Of a DNA stretch of 64,000 bases, positions 4,592-24,424 are shown piece by piece (position 1 is the stretch's first letter; each line of letters begins with the position of its first letter). The DNA is from Candidatus Moraniibacteriota bacterium (lineage in GTDB: Bacteria > Patescibacteriota > Minisyncoccia > Moranbacterales > UBA1568), in NCBI GenBank assembly GCA_016699875.1, contig CP064989.1:848525-912524 (forward strand), written 5' to 3'. The notes under the pieces are model-generated. The model was not told the origin of the DNA and made no database searches. It was given only the letters and a program-made list of their open reading frames with translations. The position numbers and the translations under genes were made by a program.

Positions 4592-7114
4592 TTGCAATTT
4601 TCTATGAAACAATCAGAACCCTCTTCGCCTGAGGAGCTGCTTCTCGGACTGTCATCCCATGAGGCGCATGATCGCTTGGAGCGATTTGGCGAGAATGTTC
4701 TTTCACCTCGCCGGCGTATAAACCCGGTTCTTGCATTTTTCAGGGAGTTTTCGAGTCCACTTCTCATTATTCTCCTGGCGGTTTCTTTCGTTTCCTTCTT
4801 CTTTCTCGGGCAGCGAACCAATGCGACGATTATCTTTGCTATGGTATTAATCTCGGCGGTTGTCGACTTTGCCAATACGTTCCGGTCGGAGCGTGCCGTG
4901 GAGCGACTTGCGGAGCGCGTGCGAACACTCTCTCGCGTGCGTCGCGACGGCAAAGAAAGAGAAGTTGATGCCAGAAGTCTTGTTCCGGACGATATCGTAC
5001 TCCTCTCTGCGGGGAGTCTCATTCCGGCGGATGCGGACGTACTTGAAGCTCGAGACTTTTTCGTTAATCAGTCGGCGTTTACCGGCGAATCATTTCCGGC
5101 GGAAAAGCGTCCGCTGGGCAATCGAACGCAGGCGGAACGCCTGACTGAACGGGACGACCGAGTATTTATGGGCACAAGTGTCGTGTCCGGATTTGCAACC
5201 GTTCGTGTCGCTTTGACGGGAGCACAGACGGAATATGGGAAAATTGCCTCGGGTGTTTCCCGGGAGAAAAGCGAGACTGATTTTGAACGGAATATTCGCG
5301 GATTCAGTCTCTTCGTGATGCGCCTCAACTTTGTACTGGTCGGGCTGGTGCTTTTGGTGAATACGCTTCTGGGACGAGACTTTATCGAGTCATTGACATT
5401 CTCAATTGCAATCGCTATCGGACTGACGCCTGAGCTTCTACCGGTCATGCTCTCGGTTTCACTCGCGCGCGGATCGGTACGCATGGCAAAGAAGCATGCT
5501 ATCGTTAAGAATCTTTCGTCCATACAAAATTTTGGCAGCATGACGGTGCTTTGTACCGACAAAACAGGAACGCTTACGCAAGACAAGATCACGCTCATCA
5601 AGCACATCGACGGAGATGGACATGACTCTGAAGAGGTATTCTTTTATTCGTATCTCAACAGTGCTTATCAAACAGGAGTTAAGAATCCGCTTGATCGGGC
5701 GATTGTGGAACACGGAAAGCCGGATATATCCTCCTATGAAAAAGTGGATGAAGTGCCGTTTGACTTTGTGCGGCGTCGTGAGTCTCTGGTGGTGGCGAAT
5801 CGCGGCAAGAAGATATTGACTACCAAGGGCGCTCCAGAGCACGTGCTTCCCATCGTGTCGTCTATCCGTATTGCCGGGAAAGACGTGGCGATAGATGAAG
5901 ATCGACAGAGAGCTCTTCGGGAATCGGCGGAGACTCTCTTCGGAGAAGGGTTTCGCGTTTTGGCGATTGCCACGAAGACACTCGATGCTGATGATTACAC
6001 TTACGATGCTGCTGATGAGTCGGACATGACATTTGTCGGGTTTGCCGCATTTCTCGACCCGCCAAAGAAAGATGCGATGCAAACCATTCGCGAGCTATCC
6101 GATGTTGGTGTCGCGGTAAAGATTCTTACGGGAGACAGCGATACGCTGACACGGAAAATCTGCGCGGATATCGGTATACCGGTTCTGGGAACCGTACTCG
6201 GGAAAGATATCGATCGGCTGTCTGAGTCAGAAGTGGCAAAACTCGCGCTTAAGACCACGATATTTGCCCGTGTGACGCCGGCAGAGAAAGAGCGTATTAT
6301 TCAAGCGCTTCGCACGCTCCCTGACACGGTGGTCGGCTATATGGGCGATGGCATCAATGATGTAACGGCGCTGCATGCCGCTGACATCGGTATATCGGTT
6401 GAGAATGCGGTCCCGGTTGCCAAGGATGCGGCGAATATTATTCTCCTCGAGAAGAGCTTCTCGGTGCTCAAAGACGGTATTGAGGAGGGAAGGAAGACCT
6501 TTCAAAACACACTCAAATATATTCGCATGTGGATCTCATCGAACTTTGGCAATATGTTTTCGATGATGGGCGCCTCGGCTATCTTGCCGTTTCTTCCGAT
6601 GAGTCCGCAGCAGATTCTTCTCAATAACTTTCTCTACGATTCCTCTCAGGTGGGACTGCCGATGGATCGCGTGGATCGAGAATCTATCACGCGTCCTGCG
6701 CGGTGGGACTTCAGTGGCATACGCCGATTCATGATTATCTTTGGCACGATCAGTTCAGTGTTCGATTTCCTGACATTTGGTGTGCTCTTTCTTTTCTTTG
6801 GACTCAATGAGGGTGTCTTTCAAACGGGATGGTTTTTGGAATCGCTTGCGACACAGGTGCTTGTCATATTCATTGTTCGCACGAGGCACATCCCGTTTTT
6901 CCGAAGCGTGCCGGGAGGATTTCTCATTGCCAATGCGCTTCTTGTCGTTGCAACCGGCTGGCTCATCGCGCTTTCGCCGTTTGGGCGCATATTCGGTTTC
7001 GAGCTTCTGCCGATACCGGTTTTTCTCTCAGTGGTTGGCATCACGATCGCTTATCTCCTCTCGGTTGAAATTGCCAAGCGCATCTTCGAAAAGACCGTTC
7101 GTCTGGAAGGTTGA
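4592..7114 (+). CDS. mgtA: magnesium-translocating P-type ATPase (MgtA/MgtB type)
   Basis: The ORF is 840 aa. It has the P-type ATPase phosphorylation motif CTDKTGTLTQ, the hinge motif GDGINDVTALHAADIGISV, the TGES actuator motif, and an MgtA-like C-terminal membrane region (LLNNFLYDSSQVGLPMDRVD). Confidence 0.85.
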   Translation: MQFSMKQSEPSSPEELLLGLSSHEAHDRLERFGENVLSPRRRINPVLAFFREFSSPLLIILLAVSFVSFFFLGQRTNATIIFAMVLISAVVDFANTFRSERAVERLAERVRTLSRVRRDGKEREVDARSLVPDDIVLLSAGSLIPADADVLEARDFFVNQSAFTGESFPAEKRPLGNRTQAERLTERDDRVFMGTSVVSGFATVRVALTGAQTEYGKIASGVSREKSETDFERNIRGFSLFVMRLNFVLVGLVLLVNTLLGRDFIESLTFSIAIAIGLTPELLPVMLSVSLARGSVRMAKKHAIVKNLSSIQNFGSMTVLCTDKTGTLTQDKITLIKHIDGDGHDSEEVFFYSYLNSAYQTGVKNPLDRAIVEHGKPDISSYEKVDEVPFDFVRRRESLVVANRGKKILTTKGAPEHVLPIVSSIRIAGKDVAIDEDRQRALRESAETLFGEGFRVLAIATKTLDADDYTYDAADESDMTFVGFAAFLDPPKKDAMQTIRELSDVGVAVKILTGDSDTLTRKICADIGIPVLGTVLGKDIDRLSESEVAKLALKTTIFARVTPAEKERIIQALRTLPDTVVGYMGDGINDVTALHAADIGISVENAVPVAKDAANIILLEKSFSVLKDGIEEGRKTFQNTLKYIRMWISSNFGNMFSMMGASAILPFLPMSPQQILLNNFLYDSSQVGLPMDRVDRESITRPARWDFSGIRRFMIIFGTISSVFDFLTFGVLFLFFGLNEGVFQTGWFLESLATQVLVIFIVRTRHIPFFRSVPGGFLIANALLVVATGWLIALSPFGRIFGFELLPIPVFLSVVGITIAYLLSVEIAKRIFEKTVRLEG

Positions 7115-14911: not shown

Positions 14912-16570
14912 ATGGATATCAGTGCGGAGGACATCAAGAGGATTCTTCTCGAGGGGAGTTATGTGGCGCAGGACGATATTCGGAAGACAGAAATAAAAGC
15001 GGAGGCTCGGGGAATTTCTCTGACGAAGCTTCTCTTAGAGGAGGGATTGATGAGCAAGGATCTTTTGGGACAGGCGATTGCCGAATCGCTCGGTGTGTCG
15101 TATTCCGATTTGAATTCCGCATCTGTCTCACCGGAGCAGGTGAGGCGAATTCCCGAAGAGATTGCAAAGAAATATCGCGCGGTTGTTTTTTCCGAAAAAC
15201 AAGACACTGTTACCATTGCAACAGATTCTCCTCGAGAAGAGGTGATGATTTCAGAGATTGCCCCGATTTTTACTGGCAAGAAAATTGTTACAACTTATTC
15301 ACTTCCGGAGGACATCGAGTCACTTTTTATTCATTACAAGAAATCGCTCGAGACGCGCTTCTCAAAGATTCTTGAAGATAATAGCCAGGTTGCTTCGGGA
15401 TTTCTGGAGGAGATATTCGAAGATGCGGTTGAGTTTCGGGCATCGGATATTCATTTTGAGCCGAATGAGAGTAGTGTGGTTATTCGGTTTCGTATCGATG
15501 GCGTCTTGCAAAATGCCGGAACGCTTCCGAAAGAATACTACGATACGCTATTGAATCGAATCAAGGTGAAGAGCGGTTTGCGTATCGACGAGCACTTCTC
15601 GGCACAGGACGGATCGCTACGGTATGGAAAAGGCGATGGAGCGGTTGATATGCGGGTCTCGATTGTCCCGACTGTCGAGGGAGAAAAAGCAGTGTTGAGA
15701 GTGCTCTCTTCCTATATTGAGGGGCTCTCGTTGGCAGATATCGGTCTTTCTTCCGAGAATCAGGAAGTGTTGCAAACGTCTGCCAAGAAGCCGTTCGGCA
15801 TGATCTTGGTCGTGGGACCGACGGGAAGCGGGAAGACAACGACGCTGTATTCATTGCTGAAACTTCTGAATAGCCCCGATGCGAACATTACCACTATCGA
15901 AGATCCGGTCGAATACAAAGTGAGAGGAATAAATCAGATTCAAGTGAATGCGCGAACGAACTTGACATTTGCTCAGGGCTTGCGTTCGATTGTCCGTCAA
16001 GATCCCGATACGATTCTTGTGGGGGAGATACGTGATCGGGAAACAGCGGAAATCGCAGTGAATGCGGCACTCACCGGACATTTGCTTCTCTCAACCTTTC
16101 ACGCGAATGATGCAGCGACAGCACTCCCTCGGCTGGTTGATATGGGCATTGAATCGTTTCTCTTAGCCTCGACGCTTGATATCATCGTAGCGCAACGTTT
16201 GGTACGAAAGATATGTGCGGCATGCCGATCGGGAGTTTCGGCGTCTGTTCTCAGTGGAAAGCTCGGCGCGGTATCTCGGTCTGTTTTGACGACATATTTC
16301 CCTGAGGAGTCGGCCACATTTTATGAAGGAAAGGGATGCGCTCTGTGTAGCGGCACGGGATATAAAGGGCGAACGGCGCTTTTTGAATGCATACGTATCA
16401 CGCCTGCCATGCAGGATCTTATTGTGAAAAAACCGTCGACGCAAGAAATATGGAAGTTGGCAAGAGAGGAAGGTTCACTTTCCTTGTTTGAAGACGGCGT
16501 CCTTAAGGTGAAGAATGGCATTACTACTGCAGAGGAGTTGTTCCGTGTCGCTGAGCCGCCAAATGTATGA
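14912..16570 (+). CDS. pilB: type IV pilus assembly ATPase PilB (GspE family)
   Basis: Walker A is GPTGSGKTTTLYSLL. A GspE N-terminal domain is present. The tetracysteine zinc motif is CAACRS..CALCSGTGYKGR. Asp and His box regions are present. Confidence 0.85.
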   Translation: MDISAEDIKRILLEGSYVAQDDIRKTEIKAEARGISLTKLLLEEGLMSKDLLGQAIAESLGVSYSDLNSASVSPEQVRRIPEEIAKKYRAVVFSEKQDTVTIATDSPREEVMISEIAPIFTGKKIVTTYSLPEDIESLFIHYKKSLETRFSKILEDNSQVASGFLEEIFEDAVEFRASDIHFEPNESSVVIRFRIDGVLQNAGTLPKEYYDTLLNRIKVKSGLRIDEHFSAQDGSLRYGKGDGAVDMRVSIVPTVEGEKAVLRVLSSYIEGLSLADIGLSSENQEVLQTSAKKPFGMILVVGPTGSGKTTTLYSLLKLLNSPDANITTIEDPVEYKVRGINQIQVNARTNLTFAQGLRSIVRQDPDTILVGEIRDRETAEIAVNAALTGHLLLSTFHANDAATALPRLVDMGIESFLLASTLDIIVAQRLVRKICAACRSGVSASVLSGKLGAVSRSVLTTYFPEESATFYEGKGCALCSGTGYKGRTALFECIRITPAMQDLIVKKPSTQEIWKLAREEGSLSLFEDGVLKVKNGITTAEELFRVAEPPNV

Positions 16571-18021
16571 GTAATGCAACATCGGCATCTCATCGCCTAT
16601 TCGCCACGGTTGGATTGGGGAAGGAGTTGGATTATTTGGTTGAGAATTTGAGCATGCTTGTGTCGGCGGGTATGCCTGTTTCGAGCGCGCTTGATGCGAT
16701 CGCCGAAGAAACGCAGTCTCATCGAATGAAACGCGCTATTCTCTCGATGCGCACTGATATCGAGAGCGGATTGACGCTCTGGGCAGCTTTGGAAAGAAGC
16801 GGATTGTTCCGAGAACATGTAGTATCGCTTGTCCGCATCGGCGAAGAATCCGGAAGGCTGGTTGAGAATCTGAAAGTAGTATCGGTTGAAGAAGAAAAAG
16901 ATCGGCTTTTCCGTTCCAAACTTCGATCGGCAATGACGTATCCGATCTTTGTGCTCCTAGTGACAGCGGTTGTCGGTATCGGTATTGCATGGTTTATCTT
17001 GCCGAAACTCGCGTTGGTATTCTCACAGTTAAAGATTGCTCTTCCGTGGATCACCAAAGCACTGATTAGTGTGGGCGTGTTTCTGAATGCGTCCGGCTGG
17101 AAGGTGCTTCCAGCGGGGTCGATCGTGATTGCGGTACTTTTTTATTTCGCATTCTTCTTCCCGAAGACCAAGGTTATCGGACAGTACTTTCTGCTCTTCA
17201 TTCCCGGAGTAAAGCAGTTGATATCGGAGGTTGAAATGGCGCGGTTCGGATTTCTTTTGGGGACGCTTCTTTCCGCGGGAATACCGGTGGTAAAGTCTCT
17301 TGACTCTTTAGTGAGAGCGACTGATTCTGTCCCGTACAGAAAACTTTTTCTGTATCTGCGTAATTCTATTGAAGCGGGAAACTCTTTTCAAAAAAGCTTT
17401 GCTTTGTTGCGTCGCGGAGACCGTCGAATATCTCGGCCTATTCAACAACTCATCGTTGCGGCTGAACGATCCGGAAATCTTCCGGAAACATTCTTGAAGA
17501 TAGGATCGACGTACGAAGGCAAAGCGGATGCGACGACGAAAAATCTCACGGTTATTTTGGAGCCGATCCTATTGGTTCTCGTATGGCTCGGAGTGGTCGG
17601 AGTGGCGCTTGCGGTTATTCTTCCGATCTACAGTCTGGTAGGCGGACTCAACCAGAATGAAGATTCGACAGCGTCTATGCAGTCAACTACCGAACAGCCT
17701 CTCTCGGTCAATTCTTCTCCCGAATCCCCGGAAAGCGGATCGTTGGCCGAACCGCAAGCAATTCCAGAGACCGGTGCTGCATTGTCGGGAGAAACGCCCA
17801 ATGTTCTGCCAGTGATTCGCGTGCAAGAAACGAATGTTGGATACTTGAATGTTCGCGATATCCCTGCGGCGTCGGGTGCGCTGGTGGGGAAGGTGGTTCC
17901 GGGCGATACGCTCTCGTATACGGAAGAACGGGATGGCTGGTTCTCGGTTGTCTTGCCGAATGGAGAGTCCGGCTGGGTGTCCGGAGATTATGTGGAAAGA
18001 GTAACTGAACAATCGCCATGA
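16567..18021 (+). CDS. pilC: type IV pilus inner-membrane platform protein PilC (GspF family) fused to a C-terminal bacterial SH3 (SH3b) domain
   Basis: Two GspF-type repeats with three TM segments are present (..SGNLPETFLKIGSTYEG..). After an S/P/E-rich linker comes an SH3b-like module: VGYLNVRDIPAASGALVGKVVPGDTLSYTEERDGWFSVVLPNGESGWVSGDYVERV. Its start overlaps the pilB stop by 4 nt. Confidence 0.8.
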   Translation: MSNATSASHRLFATVGLGKELDYLVENLSMLVSAGMPVSSALDAIAEETQSHRMKRAILSMRTDIESGLTLWAALERSGLFREHVVSLVRIGEESGRLVENLKVVSVEEEKDRLFRSKLRSAMTYPIFVLLVTAVVGIGIAWFILPKLALVFSQLKIALPWITKALISVGVFLNASGWKVLPAGSIVIAVLFYFAFFFPKTKVIGQYFLLFIPGVKQLISEVEMARFGFLLGTLLSAGIPVVKSLDSLVRATDSVPYRKLFLYLRNSIEAGNSFQKSFALLRRGDRRISRPIQQLIVAAERSGNLPETFLKIGSTYEGKADATTKNLTVILEPILLVLVWLGVVGVALAVILPIYSLVGGLNQNEDSTASMQSTTEQPLSVNSSPESPESGSLAEPQAIPETGAALSGETPNVLPVIRVQETNVGYLNVRDIPAASGALVGKVVPGDTLSYTEERDGWFSVVLPNGESGWVSGDYVERVTEQSP

Positions 18022-18458
18022 GATCGTCGGCCCATGCTTTCACTCTGCTTGAAGTCATGCTCTCACTTGCGGCTATGGCGGCGATTGCGGGTATTTCCGT
18101 GCCGATCTATCAATCGTTTCAAGTAAGAAATGATTTGGATATTGCGGCAACGACTATAGCGGAGAGTTATCGTCGTGCTACGGTGCTCGCGCAGGCATCG
18201 GACGGCGATGCTAGTTGGGGAGTGCGCATTCAATCGGGAGGCGTCACCCTTTTTAAGGGGGCGAGCTATGCGGCTCGGGACGCTTCGTTCGATGAGTTTT
18301 TTCCCGTTCCGACAGGCATTGTTCCGTCAGGGATGTCCGAGGCAATTTTCGCGAAGTTTACCGGCATGCCAATGGCGACCGGCACCGTAACACTCACCTC
18401 TTCCGCCAATGAAACACGAACCATCACAATCAATACCAAGGGCATGGTTGATTACTGA
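18018..18458 (+). CDS. prepilin-type minor pilin (GspH/FimT-like)
   Basis: The class III signal is MRSSAHA|FTLLEVMLSLAAMAAIAG, with conserved Glu5 and Ala at position -1. It overlaps the pilC stop. Confidence 0.6.
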   Translation: MRSSAHAFTLLEVMLSLAAMAAIAGISVPIYQSFQVRNDLDIAATTIAESYRRATVLAQASDGDASWGVRIQSGGVTLFKGASYAARDASFDEFFPVPTGIVPSGMSEAIFAKFTGMPMATGTVTLTSSANETRTITINTKGMVDY

Positions 18459-19038
18459 GAAATTCCGCGGATTTTCGCTTGTGGAAGTGCTTCTTTCGGG
18501 CGCAGTTTTCTCGCTCCTGGTGACAGCCTTGGTGGGGGTGTATCTCTATGGCGAAGAGTCGACCGCTCTCGCGGGGAATCGAGCGCGAGCAGTCTTTTTT
18601 GCGGAAGAAGGGCTTGAAGCGGTGCGGAATATTCGTGATGCGAACTTTACTAATCTTTCTAATGGCACATACGGACTTGCAGTATCCGGAGGACAATGGA
18701 ATTTCTCTGGCTCTTCCGATACAAACGGTATTTTCACGCGAGAAGTTGTCATTAGTTCGGCGGGTATGAACCGGAAGGATGTCGAAGTAACGGTTTCTTG
18801 GCAGCAAAATGCCAGTCGGATCGGTCAGGTATCTCTTACCTCGCGTTTTACCCATTGGCAGGAGGGTTCTGCTGCCTCGTCTTCGTGTACGGAATTTGTT
18901 ATTCCGCTTGGCTATAGCCAGGGAACGTGTCGGCAGAATACGGTTCAGTGCGGTCACAATGGCGAGACACATGAGGCAGGCGGAGATGTTCTTTGCATAG
19001 GAGGACCGTCGGCGGATACCTGCTGCGCGCTTCCGTGA
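18409..19038 (+). CDS. prepilin-type minor pilin (PilV/GspI-like) with Cys-rich C-terminus
   Basis: The ..EKFRG|FSLVEVLLSGAVFSLLV prepilin motif is present. The table ATG at 18409 gives a 21-aa leader. A TTG 12 codons downstream would give a typical short basic leader. The C-terminus has 7 Cys. Confidence 0.55.
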   Translation: MKHEPSQSIPRAWLITEKFRGFSLVEVLLSGAVFSLLVTALVGVYLYGEESTALAGNRARAVFFAEEGLEAVRNIRDANFTNLSNGTYGLAVSGGQWNFSGSSDTNGIFTREVVISSAGMNRKDVEVTVSWQQNASRIGQVSLTSRFTHWQEGSAASSSCTEFVIPLGYSQGTCRQNTVQCGHNGETHEAGGDVLCIGGPSADTCCALP

Positions 19039-19043
19039 ATCCT

Positions 19044-19559
19044 ATGAAACAAAATGAATATAGACAATCCGGGTTTACACTGATCGAGCTGCTTCTCTAT
19101 GTTGGGATCGCTTCGTTATTGCTTTTTGCTGCATCGATCATCTTGTCAATATTGCTCGAATCGCGCATCAAGAATCAGACAATAGCTGAAGTTGAGGGGC
19201 AGGGCGCGGCAGTGTTACACATTCTTGGGCAATCGGTCCGAAATGCGAGTGGCATAAATTCGCCATCTCCCGGTTCAAGTGCTTCAATGCTCTCGCTTGC
19301 TGTTGATAATTCGGGAAATAATCCGACGGTGTTTAATATTGAGTTAGGCGCGCTTCGTGTGAAAGAGGGTTCATCCGGAGCGATCAATCTCACAAATAGT
19401 CGCGTTGTCGTGTCAAACTTATCGGTAGCTAATCTTTCTCGTTCGGGTACGCTGGGAACGGTTCGGATTGAGTTTACTGTGGCGGCAAAAAACACTTCCG
19501 GACGCAATGCCTATTCTTTTTCGAAAACATTTGCAACTTCGGCTACGCTGCGACAATAG
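19044..19559 (+). CDS. prepilin-type minor pilin (PilW/GspJ-like)
   Basis: Internal Met MKQNEYRQSG|FTLIELLLYVGIASLLLFAA carries the canonical G-FTLIE motif. The table ORF begins at TTG 18993. Confidence 0.55.
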   Translation: MKQNEYRQSGFTLIELLLYVGIASLLLFAASIILSILLESRIKNQTIAEVEGQGAAVLHILGQSVRNASGINSPSPGSSASMLSLAVDNSGNNPTVFNIELGALRVKEGSSGAINLTNSRVVVSNLSVANLSRSGTLGTVRIEFTVAAKNTSGRNAYSFSKTFATSATLRQ

Positions 19560-19605
19560 TCAACGCTGGTCGGTTTGGGACTCAAACAGTATTTTCGTTG
19601 ATGCT

Positions 19606-20007
19606 ATGTTGAATCGCAAGAAACAATCCGGGTATATCACGCTTCTCAGTATCTTGGTTGTCGGAGCGGTCGGGGTCTCGATATCCGTATCGCTCCTCTT
19701 GCTTGGGCTGGGGAATTCACGGACCGGACTCTCTCTGCAGCAAATGTACCAAGCGAAAGCGCTCGCGGATGCTTGTGCGGAAGAGGCTCTTATTGAGGTG
19801 CAGAGCTCTGTTTCGTTTGCCGGGAGCGGCTCTTTGGCAATCGGACGGGGAACCTGTTCGTACTCGGTAACGAATCAGGGCGGGCAAAATAGGACGGTGA
19901 CAGCTGTGGGCACAATCGGCACAATTGTTCGGAAAACAGAAGTTATTTTGAGTAAGATTACTCCAAATATCGCTGTGATATCTTGGCAAGAGGTAAGGGA
20001 TTTGTAA
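19606..20007 (+). CDS. PilX-like pilus-associated protein / atypical minor pilin
   Basis: MLNRKKQSGYITLLSILVVGAVGVSISVSLLLLGL is a hydrophobic PilX-like N-terminal segment lacking Glu5. It is Met47 of table ORF 19468..20007. Confidence 0.45.
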   Translation: MLNRKKQSGYITLLSILVVGAVGVSISVSLLLLGLGNSRTGLSLQQMYQAKALADACAEEALIEVQSSVSFAGSGSLAIGRGTCSYSVTNQGGQNRTVTAVGTIGTIVRKTEVILSKITPNIAVISWQEVRDL

Positions 20008-20053
20008 CAAAGTATGGTATACTCGCAACATCAAGTGTTATTTTTCTGCCGCT

Positions 20054-20518
20054 ATGCGTGACATTCGAAGAGGGTGTATTCAAAATGAGAGGCAGCGAGG
20101 ATTTACCTTGCTTGAAATACTTTTGGTTGTAGCGGCAATCGGCATTCTTGCCGGCATCGTTATTCTCGCAATAAATCCGACCAAGCAGCTCGGGGACACT
20201 CGGAATGCCCAGCGCCGTTCCGATGTGAATACGATTCTGAATGCGGTTTATCAATATGCCATCGACAACAATGGCACTCTGCCAGCATCTATCACTACCA
20301 CCGCAACGCCTGTTTGCAAGACGGGCGGAACCTGTACAAGTCTTATCGATTTGAGCGCGCTTACGACGAATGAGAAATACCTCGTTTCTCTGCCATACGA
20401 TCCGATCGGTTCGACGACGAATAGCACCGGGTACAATATTAGCAAGTCTGCGAATGGGCGAGTGACAGTTTCAGCTCCAAGTGCCGAACAGAGCGTGACG
20501 ATCAGTGTCACGAGATGA
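20054..20518 (+). CDS. type IV pilin (major pilin candidate, paralog 1)
   Basis: ..QRG|FTLLEILLVVAAIGILAGIVILAINPTKQLGDTRNAQRRSDVNTILNAVYQY.. is a canonical type IVa pilin N-terminal helix. The C-terminal domain is Cys-containing and Thr/Ser-rich. Confidence 0.75.
   Translation: MRDIRRGCIQNERQRGFTLLEILLVVAAIGILAGIVILAINPTKQLGDTRNAQRRSDVNTILNAVYQYAIDNNGTLPASITTTATPVCKTGGTCTSLIDLSALTTNEKYLVSLPYDPIGSTTNSTGYNISKSANGRVTVSAPSAEQSVTISVTR
20105..20284 (+). repeat. direct repeat copy 1 (conserved pilin N-terminal coding block, ~180 nt)
   Basis: Near-identical nucleotide stretch (..attctcgcaataaatccgaccaagcagctcgg..actcggaatgcccagcg..) shared with 20697..20876, roughly 85-90% identity by eye. Confidence 0.7.
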
Positions 20519-20678
20519 CGTATGTCATGGCAGCGAAAGTGGGTGTTTGGGTTTCCTTTCCCTAAGAGAAGTGCGTGAAGAGTTTCATTGAGGATGGCGA
20601 ATATTTATCTGGTGACGGCTGGATTTCTGAGAAGGCAGAAATGACAAGAAAAGAAATACGTCGCATACATGATACATT

Positions 20679-21137
20679 ATGAAAAACACAAAGGCGTTTA
20701 CGCTTATAGAGATCTTGCTGGTTGTTGCGGCGATTGCTATTCTTGCTGGCATTGTTATTCTCGCAATAAATCCGACCAAGCAGCTCGGCGATACTCGGAA
20801 TGCCCAGCGTCATGCTGATGTGACGACGATTCTCAATGCTGTCTATCAGTATGCGCTTGATAATAATGGTACTTTGCCGACGATTCCTTCGAGTTCGACC
20901 TGTGACAACACCGCTTCCCACCAGATTTGCAAAGCAGGTTCTACAGGGACATGTTCGACCGGCGTTGATATTTCTGTCATTACGGACAACCAGAAATATG
21001 TGACGAGCATACCGATTGATCCGTCGGTTTCTTCGGCGGACGGAACAGGATACTATATTGTTCGAAGTTCGAACAATCGGGTGACGGTCTGTGCGCCGAA
21101 TGCCGAACAGGGGGTTGCGATTAGTGTGACTCGGTAG
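20679..21137 (+). CDS. type IV pilin (major pilin candidate, paralog 2)
   Basis: MKNTKA|FTLIEILLVVAAIAILAGIVILAINPTKQLGDTRNAQRHADVTTILNAVYQY.. has an N-terminal helix near-identical to paralog 1. The C-terminal domain is divergent with 5 Cys. Confidence 0.75.
   Translation: MKNTKAFTLIEILLVVAAIAILAGIVILAINPTKQLGDTRNAQRHADVTTILNAVYQYALDNNGTLPTIPSSSTCDNTASHQICKAGSTGTCSTGVDISVITDNQKYVTSIPIDPSVSSADGTGYYIVRSSNNRVTVCAPNAEQGVAISVTR
20697..20876 (+). repeat. direct repeat copy 2 (conserved pilin N-terminal coding block)
   Basis: See copy 1. The repeat separation is about 590 nt. Confidence 0.7.
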
Positions 21138-21154
21138 AATTTCAGAGAAATCGT

Positions 21155-21736
21155 ATGAATATACGAAGCCAGCTGTTCGCAAGTTATCTTGCGCTCGTTC
21201 TCTTGGGTGCCGGGACGTGGCTCTTTCTTATTGTAGAAGTGAAGACTCTCGCTCGTACGCACGAGGAATATGAGAGGATGGAATTGAACTCGTTTTCGGA
21301 TACGACGCTCTCCAAGCATGTCGGCGAGTCACAGATATTTGACGAATCGCTGAAACGAGTGCTTGATATCGTTGCGGTAAGCGTTGTGACATGGTCGATA
21401 CTGTCAGTCGTCGTCATCTGGAGAGTGTCGTCTCGGTTTACGAAGCCGATTCTTGAGTTGAAACTGGGAATGCAAAGGGTTTCCCAGGGAGAATCTTCAG
21501 TGCGTACCACCATATCGTCACGTGATGAATTCGGAGAACTTTCGGAAGCATTTAATCGCATGGCGGAGGAACTCGAGGGAGATAGGGAAAACATAGAGAA
21601 GAAAGTGGCAAGTCGGACAGCGGAACTTGAACGGATGAACCGGATCATGATGGATCGCGAGTCTAAGATGATCGAATTGAAAGAGAAGATACGGGAACTT
21701 GAGCAACACTATGGGAATATACGCGGCAACGATTGA
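21155..21736 (+). CDS. membrane HAMP-domain protein (2 TM + HAMP + coiled coil, no recognisable output domain)
   Basis: TM1 is LALVLLGAGTWLFLIV and TM2 is IVAVSVVTWSILSVVVIW. A HAMP-like segment follows (RFTKPILELKLGMQRV..RDEFGELSEAFNRMAEELE). The C-terminus is a charged coiled coil. Confidence 0.6.
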   Translation: MNIRSQLFASYLALVLLGAGTWLFLIVEVKTLARTHEEYERMELNSFSDTTLSKHVGESQIFDESLKRVLDIVAVSVVTWSILSVVVIWRVSSRFTKPILELKLGMQRVSQGESSVRTTISSRDEFGELSEAFNRMAEELEGDRENIEKKVASRTAELERMNRIMMDRESKMIELKEKIRELEQHYGNIRGND

Positions 21737-22397
21737 GGGCATTGCGACAAGAGCGTTGAATACGACGGAAGTGACATTTGGCATATCGGAACCGTTCAAA
21801 TTTACGGCCGGGCAGTATGTTACTGTGACGTTGCCAACACTCTATCATCTCGCAGAACGGGAACAGTATCGAGAATTCTCTCTTATTTCTCCGCCAGAAG
21901 ACGCATCTCGGCTTTCCATCGTGTTTCGAAACTCCGGAAGTCATTTTAAGCAGGAAATTTTACGAGGAAGAGATATTGGTCGGAATATAAAAGTCTCTCT
22001 TGAAGGGCCAAAGGGGGTGTTTACGTTGTCTCAGGATCTGAGTATGCCAATCGTTTTTCTTGCCGGAGGCATCGGCATCGCGCCCTTTCTTAGCATGATG
22101 CGGCATCTCTCAAACTTGAAAATTTCGGCTGACATCACACTTTTTTACTGTAATCGCAATCGCGAAAGTGCCACGTATCTGGATGAAATTATGAGCTATG
22201 AATTTGTTCGTTGCATCCCTGTGTTCGGCGACTTGTCTCTCACATTGATTGAGTCTCATGCGAAAGAGTATTCGAAGGACGGATTATGGTATGTATCGGG
22301 TCCTCGGGGGATGGTGAGGACAGCTCGTGAGATTCTCACGGCGCTTTCCGTTGAAGACAGATATATAAGATCAGAAGAATTTTCCGGGTATGAGTGA
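21699..22397 (+). CDS. FAD/NAD(P)-binding oxidoreductase, ferredoxin-NADP reductase-like fold
   Basis: An RxYS-type FAD motif (YREFSLIS) and an NAD-binding GGIGIAPF motif are present. The protein is ~230 aa. An internal Met at 21711 is the likely start. Confidence 0.6.
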   Translation: MSNTMGIYAATIEGIATRALNTTEVTFGISEPFKFTAGQYVTVTLPTLYHLAEREQYREFSLISPPEDASRLSIVFRNSGSHFKQEILRGRDIGRNIKVSLEGPKGVFTLSQDLSMPIVFLAGGIGIAPFLSMMRHLSNLKISADITLFYCNRNRESATYLDEIMSYEFVRCIPVFGDLSLTLIESHAKEYSKDGLWYVSGPRGMVRTAREILTALSVEDRYIRSEEFSGYE

Positions 22398-24018
22398 TGA
22401 TTTCCAACTGGCGCAAGAAAACAAGCTTCCAATTGAAGATTGCAGAGCGTTACTGACGGCGGTGAGTCAGGCAGCGCTTGTTTCCGTGACGGATTCTCGC
22501 GGCTCTATAATTTATGCAAACGACACTTTTGTAAAAGTCTCGAAGTATTCCTACGAAGAGCTTATCGGACAGAATCACCGGATCTTGAAATCAGGCGATC
22601 AACCGGATGTGATGTTTGAAGAACTGTGGAGAACGATTTCTTCCGGAAAAGTATGGCGAGGAGAGATTAAGAACAGGGCGAAGGACGGATCATACTATTG
22701 GGTTGATACTTCAATCGCTCCGATACTCGATGCTTCCGGGGTTCCGGAGCGGTATATTGCCGTTCGTTTTCTCATTACGGAGAAGAAGAATTCTGAGGAG
22801 GGAATCATGCAACAGAACGAGGAACTGGAAAAGACTAAGCGCATCATGCTCAACGTGCTCGAAGACGTGCAGGAGGAACGAAGTCGTGCGGAATCGCTTG
22901 CTTCCGATTTGGAGAAATTCAAGGTCGCACTCGACGGGACATCCGATCATGTTGTTATCACCGATCCGAATGGTGTTGCCTTATATGCAAATGCCGGATT
23001 GAAACGGATCACGGGGTTTAGTCCGAAGGAAGTTCTCGGGAAAAAGGTAGGGACGAAAGAGTTGTGGGGCGGGAATATGAATCAGGAATTTTATGAGAAT
23101 CTTTGGCGTGTTATCAAGATTGAAAAAAAACCTTTTGTCGGAGAAATTACTAACACGCGAAAAGATGGGACGCCATACCAGGCACTTTCAAGCATTTCAC
23201 CTATTGTGAACAAGCATGGCACTTTGGAATTTTTTGTCGGTATAGAGCGCGATATCACCAAGGAGAAAGAAATCGATAATGCAAAGACGGAATTTGTGTC
23301 GCTGGCGTCGCACCAACTTCGAACGCCGCTTTCCGCTATCAACTGGTATACGGAAATGCTCTTGTCGGAGGATGCGGGATCGATATCGGATATACAGCGA
23401 GAGTACCTTGAGGAGGTAAGTCACGGAAGTCGGCGTATGGTGGAATTGGTGAATGCTCTGCTCAATGTCTCGAGGATAGAGTTGGGCACATTTGCCATTC
23501 AGCCGGAGCCGACGGATGTTGTAGAGCTGGCGCGTGATGTGCTCAATGAGCTCAAACCGAAGATCTCGGAGAAACAGCTGCATATAAAGGAACAATTTGC
23601 AGAAGATCTTCCAAAAATGCTGATCGATCCGAAACTCACTAGAATTGTCTTTCAGAATCTTCTGACAAATGCGGTGAAATACACGCCGGAACAGGGGAAT
23701 GTCTCGATGTCGATTGCTATGAGTCAAGAAAAGACAAAATTCAGTATTTCTGTTTCAGACACGGGATATGGAATTCCCAAAGAAGATCAGTCTCGCATAT
23801 TTACCAAGTTGTTCCGGGCGTCGAATATCCGAGAGAAGGAAACGGATGGAACGGGATTGGGTCTTTATATCGTCAAGTCCATCATTGAACATTCTGGCGG
23901 AACGGTGACATTTGAGTCGGAAGAGGAAAAGGGAACGACGTTTACGATCGAACTTCCCGTTTCAGGTATGCGTTCGCAGGAGGGAAGTAAGCAAATCGAA
24001 TGGAAAGAAGAGCTTTGA
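22390..24018 (+). CDS. PAS/PAC-domain sensor histidine kinase
   Basis: Two PAS-like regions are present (..IIYANDTFVKVSKYSYEELIGQNHRIL.. and ..VALYANAGLKRITGFSPKEVLGKKV..). The H-box is SHQLRTPLSAINWYTE. The N box and G boxes are present (DTGYGIPKED, GTGLGLYIVKSIIEHSGG). Confidence 0.85.
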   Translation: MSDDFQLAQENKLPIEDCRALLTAVSQAALVSVTDSRGSIIYANDTFVKVSKYSYEELIGQNHRILKSGDQPDVMFEELWRTISSGKVWRGEIKNRAKDGSYYWVDTSIAPILDASGVPERYIAVRFLITEKKNSEEGIMQQNEELEKTKRIMLNVLEDVQEERSRAESLASDLEKFKVALDGTSDHVVITDPNGVALYANAGLKRITGFSPKEVLGKKVGTKELWGGNMNQEFYENLWRVIKIEKKPFVGEITNTRKDGTPYQALSSISPIVNKHGTLEFFVGIERDITKEKEIDNAKTEFVSLASHQLRTPLSAINWYTEMLLSEDAGSISDIQREYLEEVSHGSRRMVELVNALLNVSRIELGTFAIQPEPTDVVELARDVLNELKPKISEKQLHIKEQFAEDLPKMLIDPKLTRIVFQNLLTNAVKYTPEQGNVSMSIAMSQEKTKFSISVSDTGYGIPKEDQSRIFTKLFRASNIREKETDGTGLGLYIVKSIIEHSGGTVTFESEEEKGTTFTIELPVSGMRSQEGSKQIEWKEEL

Positions 24019-24043: not shown

Positions 24044-24424
24044 ATGGATTCGATGAAGAAAAAAATTTTGATTGTTGAGGATGACACCTCGCTGCGGAAT
24101 GCGCTTTCGGAGAAACTTTCTTATGAGGGATTCTCCGCGTTTGAAGCGGAGAATGGCATTGTCGGTTTTGAAGTTGCGCTTCGAGAACGTCCGGATCTTA
24201 TCTTGCTCGATGTGATTATGCCGAAAATGGACGGTCTTACGATGCTCTCAAAGTTGAGAGAAGACTCGTGGGGAAAGAATGCGCAAGTTATCATGCTGAC
24301 CAATGTGAGCGACGGTGAAAGCGTATTGAAGTCCTTGAATCAGGCGGCATTTGACTATCTCATAAAATCGGACTGGAAGCTGGAAGACATTGTGCGAAAG
24401 ATCCGTGACCGACTTGAGAAATAG
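24044..24424 (+). CDS. single-domain response regulator (CheY-like receiver)
   Basis: KILIVEDD..DLILLDVIMPKMDG..VIMLTN.. is a REC domain. It lies immediately downstream of the histidine kinase. Confidence 0.8.
   Translation: MDSMKKKILIVEDDTSLRNALSEKLSYEGFSAFEAENGIVGFEVALRERPDLILLDVIMPKMDGLTMLSKLREDSWGKNAQVIMLTNVSDGESVLKSLNQAAFDYLIKSDWKLEDIVRKIRDRLEK

Follow-up and report, generated by a model that had tools for sequence, protein, structure and literature searches.

Two pilin genes at the end of a type IV pilus operon

The window analysed here, a single stretch of DNA of 64,000 nucleotides, carries a type IV pilus operon on one strand at positions 14912–21137, in the order PilB, PilC, pilin-like ORFs, pilin A1 and pilin A2. 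Pfam matches on the plus strand identify a PilB ATPase at 14912–16570 (T2SSE at 396 bits, together with an MshEN domain), a PilC platform protein at 16567–18021 (T2SSF, with SH3_3 as the C-terminal domain), and four pilin-like ORFs at 18018–20007. The assembly ATPase and the platform protein are thus co-encoded with the two pilins, upstream and on the same strand, as is characteristic of type IV pilins, and the same upstream order of PilB, PilC and pilin-like ORFs is seen in the related loci L001, L004 and L007. A1 and A2 close a PilB-PilC-minor-pilin operon of the Patescibacteria type. The bacterial SH3 domain of PilC (PF08239, residues 426–477) is also present in L001 and L004, and L007 is without it. 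If the first possible start codon is used, the four minor-pilin-like ORFs (18018–20007) overlap each other by 46–92 nt, and the real starts probably lie further downstream; the ORF at 19468–20007 has no Pfam N_methyl match. No PilD-type gene is found among the window ORFs that were scanned, which make up a minority of the ORFs, and a scan for promoters and terminators gave counts at chance level. On the 3′ side of A2 follow a HAMP-only ORF (21155–21736), an FNR-like NAD-binding ORF (21699–22397), a PAS-HisKA kinase (22390–24018) and a response regulator (24044–24424). As L004 and L090 encode one 521-aa HAMP-PAS-HisKA protein immediately 3′ of A2, an inserted ORF seems to interrupt the sensor in the window and in L001.

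Pilin A1 (20054–20518, plus strand) is a 154-aa prepilin with the leader MRDIRRGCIQNERQRG/FTLLE, and pilin A2 (20679–21137, plus strand) is a 152-aa prepilin with the leader MKNTKA/FTLIE. The prepilin cleavage/methylation motif is present in both (QRG/FTLLE and TKA/FTLIE, respectively), and with PF07963 N_methyl scores of 29 bits (A1) and 24 bits (A2) both exceed the curated cut-off of 21.2 bits, in agreement with the preliminary description, which had recognized tandem pilin paralogs with differing globular domains. Mature A1 has 138 aa and a globular domain of 77 aa with 2 Cys, whereas mature A2 has 146 aa and a globular domain of 85 aa with 4 Cys; amino acid identity between the two domains is ~50%. 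AF2 models of A1 and A2 (pLDDT of 65 and 76, respectively) consist of a ~53-residue helix with a kink at Asn-Pro, followed by 3–4 strands, i.e. the lollipop fold of pilins. A Foldseek search of the PDB with the A2 model returned nothing below E = 0.88, and PDB matches by sequence are limited to pilin N-terminal helices. An exact-protein look-up has no identical protein of A1 or A2 on record, and a search with A2 yields 3496 homologues at E ≤ 0.001, the named ones belonging to Patescibacteria groups (Falkow-, Moran-, Berkel- and Paceibacteria) with 65–77% identity over the full length.

Position −1 of the A2 leader (20679–20699) is Ala in place of the near-universal Gly. The same Ala(−1) leader occurs in L001/L009, L088/L089, L090 and L091, and Gly occupies this position in L004, L007 and 21 of 23 aligned family members. 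The A1–A2 spacer (20519–20678, plus strand; 160 nt) has no Rfam match and contains a small hairpin at 20622–20641, the fold z-score of which is not significant; a compensatory variant of this hairpin exists in L001/L009 (L001 spacer at 5835–6000). Among relatives the spacer length ranges from 10 to 166 nt, with 10–11 nt in L004, L007 and L091, and with 152 nt in L088/L089 (L089 571–722), where GC-rich palindromic repeats are found.

Observed and expected identity of the N-terminal block

The two genes share an N-terminal block that corresponds to mature codons 1–61 and the α1 helix. The A1 copy lies at 20102–20284 and its in-register partner in A2 at 20697–20879, both on the plus strand, and together they form a direct repeat with an offset of 595 nt; the preliminary description had placed them at 20105..20284 and 20697..20876, which is 3 nt out of register. 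It had also termed the block ~180 nt long and near-identical. The shared block itself is borne out, whereas the near-identity is not: the copies agree at 146 of 183 nt (80%) and at 55 of 61 aa (90%), with pS of 0.60 and dS of ~1.2 across the whole block. When synonymous codons are drawn at random by window codon usage with the amino-acid pair held fixed, an identity of 74% (sd 2%) is predicted from amino-acid conservation and codon usage. The excess over this expectation is confined to the central 72 nt at 20144–20215 (A2: 20739–20810), where 93% identity is observed versus 77% expected (P<5e-5) and dS falls to 0.32. In the first 42 nt (20102–20143) the observed identity is 64% versus 69% expected (pS 0.96), and in the last 69 nt (20216–20284) it is 75% versus 73% (pS 0.75), synonymous sites being saturated in both flanks. 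Divergence of synonymous sites, which had been named as the observation that would count against recombination, is therefore seen over ~60% of the block and is not seen in the central 40%. Because synonymous sites are saturated over that ~60%, the bulk of the similarity is attributed to protein-level constraint.

Within the central segment, A1 (20144–20215, plus strand; mature codons 15–38, ILAGIVILAINPTKQLGDTRNAQR) and A2 (20739–20810, plus strand) agree at 67 of 72 nt and differ at 5, and they share an exact run of 35 nt (20159–20193 and 20754–20788). We regard the A1 copy as the probable recipient, and the A2 copy as the probable donor, of a conversion tract. Identical codons are used at 19 of the 24 positions versus 8.6 expected (P ~1e-5), and these include non-preferred codons that are common to both copies (ATA, ACT and GCA, at 0.16, 0.15 and 0.20 of the usage for their amino acids), so that codon bias does not account for the surplus. 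With a Sawyer-type test, the longest stretch of concordant polymorphic sites has p=0.0007 across the gene as a whole and p=0.0027 when the N-terminal block is taken separately. A1 and A2 have the same residue at each of the 24 positions of the tract, and conversion would thus have been silent at the protein level. Given the shortness of the tract and its 5 differences, a single event is indistinguishable from several smaller ones. Two metagenome scans for a 35-mer and a 23-mer of the tract specific to the window gave 0 matches.

These data bear directly on a first alternative, namely that no recombination took place and that the 5′ similarity reflects amino-acid conservation of the helix combined with codon bias. 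This explanation holds for 111 of the 183 nt, i.e. for both flanks, and accords with the 80–100% conservation of the helix across the family. For 20144–20215 it is rejected, as the central 72 nt exceed the null expectation, rare codons are common to both copies, and the paralogues share lineage-specific synonymous states that the orthologues lack. As an account of the entire block we judge it unlikely.

Orthologues and paralogues in related loci

Related loci were recovered via A2 homologues and are compared here with the window locus (W), for which L089 is the closest relative. The recovered loci retain the order minor pilins, A1 and A2, with clearly orthologous C-terminal domains. A2 identity to W is 95% in L088/L089, 91% in L001–L003 and L009, 86% in L004–L006, 85% in L091 and 72% in L007/L008, and A1 orthologues are present in L001, L004, L007, L089 and L091. 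In the W/L089 quartet, sites within the tract (mature-coding nt 43–114) pair the orthologues in 0 cases and the paralogues in 7, whereas in the rest of the gene 70 sites pair the orthologues and 4 the paralogues (Fisher P = 9e-8). The remaining quartets agree (W/L001, 3e-7; W/L004, 8e-4; W/L091, 5e-3; W/L007, 4e-6), and a sliding-window comparison likewise places orthologues nearer than paralogues in the flanks and the reverse in the tract. Both features of interlocus gene conversion are accordingly observed at this locus, namely a mosaic of paralogue and orthologue signal and a synonymous excess beyond codon usage. On this sequence evidence the mosaic is read as a gene-conversion event later than the split between W and L089.

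Third-position identity of the A1 tract in W is 0.58 to A2 of L089 and 0.50 to A2 of L004, versus 0.29 and 0.25 to A1 of the same loci, and both tract copies in W are nearer to the A2 orthologues than to the A1 orthologues. As the A1 tract is nearer to A2 than to A1 orthologues, the donor was probably A2, and the direction of conversion would probably be A2 to A1. In L004 and L089 the corresponding segment has not been homogenised (third-position identity between the copies of 0.54 and 0.58, respectively), which indicates that conversion is sporadic.

Conservation of the C-terminal domains

The C-terminal domains of A1 and A2 (77 and 85 aa) are saturated in dS relative to each other. Between orthologues, dN/dS is 0.016–0.058 at dS >1 when both domains are considered (A1, 0.04–0.06; A2, ~0.02), and these low values place both genes under purifying selection, so that neither is a silent cassette. 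Among quartet-informative sites of the C-terminal domain, 59 pair the orthologues and 3 the paralogues, and 59 of 64 follow orthology. A1-type domains with 60–77% identity occur in genomes labelled Uhrbacteria, Moraniibacteriota, Staskawicz-, Jackson- and Doudnabacteria. In a global family alignment, A1-like domains are clearly separate and A2-like domains grade into intermediates such as P0107. A division into two discrete classes of C-terminal domain was dropped, since the separation in the alignment is partial. As the A2-like domains grade into intermediates, the age of the duplication is stated cautiously; with this caution, the A1 and A2 types appear to be old. Taken together, the sequences describe A1 and A2 as co-oriented, old major-pilin paralogues, each conserved and both evidently functional. 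The degree of A2 conservation (65–77% across labelled Patescibacteria phyla, dN/dS ~0.02) is unusual for a surface-exposed subunit, and is suggestive of a binding partner or a function that is likewise conserved.

These properties decide against a pilin variation system in which the 5′ block would serve as a handle for swaps of the C-terminal domain, in the manner of Neisseria pilE/pilS or of the Moraxella pilin inversion. A direct repeat with an exact core of 35 nt and copies 595 nt apart could support RecA-dependent exchange or deletion. The domains that would be swapped are nonetheless conserved orthologous lineages under strong purifying selection, with informative sites that follow orthology as above, and both genes are complete, each with its own start codon and leader. 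Neither of the two Neisseria-type features tested, 5′-truncated silent donors and a hypervariable C-terminus, was found; tblastn and blastn searches of the 64-kb window, which is the range covered, revealed no further pilin copy, fragment or silent cassette, and no recombinase gene or inverted repeats were seen near the pair. We therefore regard such a system as highly improbable. The earlier proposal that the pair is a substrate for homologous recombination or gene conversion is upheld for a tract of ~70 nt in the helix-coding block, where the outcome is homogenising. Its extension to diversification, i.e. to antigenic or functional variation, is not supported in view of the conserved C-terminal lineages, their dN/dS and the 59:3 ratio of sites, and the silent cassettes that it had suggested looking for elsewhere are absent from the window.

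Recurrence in pilin pairs of Patescibacteria

A scan in which each GTDB species was represented by a single genome gave 79 loci. With the loci recovered earlier, 28 loci contain 2 or 3 adjacent members of the family, from which 22 within-genome pairs remain after removal of near-duplicates. In 17 of the 22 pairs the fraction of identical codons is higher in the N-terminal block than in the C-terminal domain (Wilcoxon 1.3e-4), and in 20 of the 22 the longest exact run lies within the N-terminal block. Among codons for identical amino acids, the same-codon fraction is 0.61–0.67 over codons 1–54 of these pairs and ~0.5 (0.48) in their C-terminal domains, as compared with 0.35–0.38 between genomes; the within-genome excess in the C-terminal domain (0.48 versus 0.35) is partly due to shared codon usage and not to conversion. 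Exact runs reach 177 nt in L035, 140 nt in L050, 110 nt in L007 and 71 nt in L055, with shorter runs of 67 nt in L025, 57 nt in L053 and 47 nt in L021, and L010, L020 and L089 have pairs without homogenisation. At helix column 22 identity is 0.95 within genomes versus 0.39 between genomes, and lineage-specific changes are common to the paralogues. N-terminal homogenisation is thus a recurrent, though sporadic, feature of tandem pilins in many genomes of Patescibacteria, and the bounds and the sequences of the tracts vary from genome to genome. In L035 (3019–3899) and L050 (1582–2461) the N-terminal blocks are identical in nucleotides throughout (177 and 140 nt, respectively), and the C-terminal domains are just 54–78% identical in amino acids; the conversions in these two loci are much larger or more recent than that in the window.

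The sharp bounds of the central patch, and the overlap of homogenised tracts over the same region in several genomes, might also suggest an element at the nucleotide level that both genes need, for instance a structured RNA, a site for a regulator or a signal for translation. Orthologous patches nevertheless differ at synonymous sites (third-position identity 0.25–0.62), tract bounds vary by genome, and the RNA folds predicted for the two copies are neither stable nor shared (z of −0.54 and +1.42). Neither covariation in a structure nor a motif common to the genomes was observed. Nor is there an Rfam match, the search of 19500–21800 having returned nothing. There is very little to commend such an element, and the candidate of a shared RNA element was dropped because the tract and the spacer fold no better than shuffled sequences. 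Finally, a mosaic produced by metagenome assembly, through strain or repeat chimerism, is extremely improbable: the source does resemble an uncultured Patescibacteria genome and the exact proteins have no other record, but the copies differ at 5 of 72 positions and hence did not collapse into a single sequence, mosaics of this kind are present in many independent assemblies and samples, and L001, L002, L003 and L009 mutually agree, as do L007 and L008.

Proposed mechanism and significance

With the alternatives weighed in this manner, we consider it likely that the locus combines old paralogues, a block constrained by its protein and an intrachromosomal conversion tract of ~72 nt, and that such conversion is recurrent in the family. 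A short gene conversion, intrachromosomal and non-reciprocal, would have replaced the central ~72 nt after the split from the nearest sampled relative, and the five synonymous differences would have accrued in the tract thereafter. RecA-type recombination requires a few tens of identical bases. The protein constraint on α1 may keep local DNA identity sufficient to seed the pairing of copies 595 nt apart, and short non-reciprocal transfers would then reset synonymous divergence. On the 3′ side the tract would be limited by the diverged DNA of the globular domain, which stays orthologous, and on the 5′ side mature positions 4 and 14, where A1 and A2 have residues of their own, may set the boundary. 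Recurrent conversions of this kind would result in concerted evolution of the helix-coding region. We infer the mechanism, which would be RecA-type recombination or template switching, together with the direction of donation and the functional consequence.

The net effect is that the polymerisation core is homogenised and the exposed surface is not diversified, i.e. ordinary paralogue housekeeping and not antigen switching. No new mechanism is involved, as pilin paralogues in tandem are well known and so is gene conversion over short tracts; the added interest lies in the finding that small-scale homogenising conversion is widespread in Patescibacteria pilus operons. Type IV pili are, to our knowledge, among a small number of surface machines retained throughout the Patescibacteria, where they serve in host attachment and probably in DNA uptake. 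That many of these genomes have two conserved, adjacent major-pilin types with repeatedly homogenised helix regions hints that both subunits use one machinery and perhaps one fibre. Conversion of α1 could even be selected, and not a neutral side effect, because A1 and A2 would co-polymerise in one heteropolymeric pilus and would need interchangeable cores; we hold this to be a rather doubtful extension, and if true, the tandem A1/A2 pair would represent a widespread two-subunit pilus design of ultra-small bacteria. As part of the same doubtful reading, the direct-repeat core might at times delete or regenerate a copy, which would account for genomes with one, two or three copies. In practical terms, pilin trees that are built from N-terminal sequence will mislead.

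Comparison with known systems

Gene conversion has been described as a cause of concerted evolution among prokaryotic paralogues (e.g. PMC6053082). As in those cases, paralogues within a genome are closer than orthologues, and the tracts are bounded by divergent sequence; unlike those cases, the effect is limited to ~70–180 nt in a gene of 460 nt and occurs sporadically across lineages. In the literature searched, Neisseria apart, no report was found of tandem pilin paralogues that evolve in concert. In the antigenic variation of Neisseria pilE/pilS, promoterless, 5′-truncated silent cassettes donate variable C-terminal segments (PMC4023411). The resemblance lies in non-reciprocal conversion between pilin copies with conserved sequence as the homology. 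At A1/A2, however, both copies are complete, it is the invariant helix region that is converted, the outcome is homogenising and the C-terminal domains are conserved.

A further comparison is provided by the cultivated Saccharibacteria TM7x, also of the Patescibacteria, which has two type IV pilus systems with the major pilins PilA1 and PilA2 in separate loci and with separate ATPases, the pili serving host association and motility (PMC11623550). Like the window locus, TM7x has two small major pilins (highly expressed in TM7x) together with several minor pilins, whereas A1 and A2 are adjacent behind a single PilB/PilC. Thermus thermophilus forms wide and narrow pili from PilA4 and PilA5 in one bacterium (PMC7203116), i.e. 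two major pilins and two fibres (for DNA uptake and twitching, respectively) on a shared machinery, and is a possible model for the alternative fibres that the preliminary description had raised as its second reading. Two fibre types are established in Thermus, whereas for A1 and A2 they are hypothetical; the literature searched contained no report of 5′ nucleotide homogenisation of the Thermus pilin genes.

The closest analogue of A1/A2 is PilE1/PilE2 of Streptococcus sanguinis, a monoderm in which two major pilins form a heteropolymeric type IV pilus (PMC10628169, PMC6497953) and in which the N-terminal portions of α1 are identical (PMC10628169). Both systems have two major-pilin paralogues in one locus, with one machinery and a monoderm-type envelope, and in both the N-termini of α1 are identical or nearly so and the differences are restricted to the globular part. 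The S. sanguinis pilins are unrelated in sequence to A1/A2 beyond the class III signal and the helix, and those studies did not centre on a conversion tract. PilE1 and PilE2 also share extensive identity, in contrast to the ~50% identity of the globular domains of A1 and A2, for which co-polymerisation is hypothetical. By analogy with these systems, we favour an arrangement in which A1 and A2 would be two subunits on one assembly machinery, which would either be mixed in a common filament or build two separate fibres.
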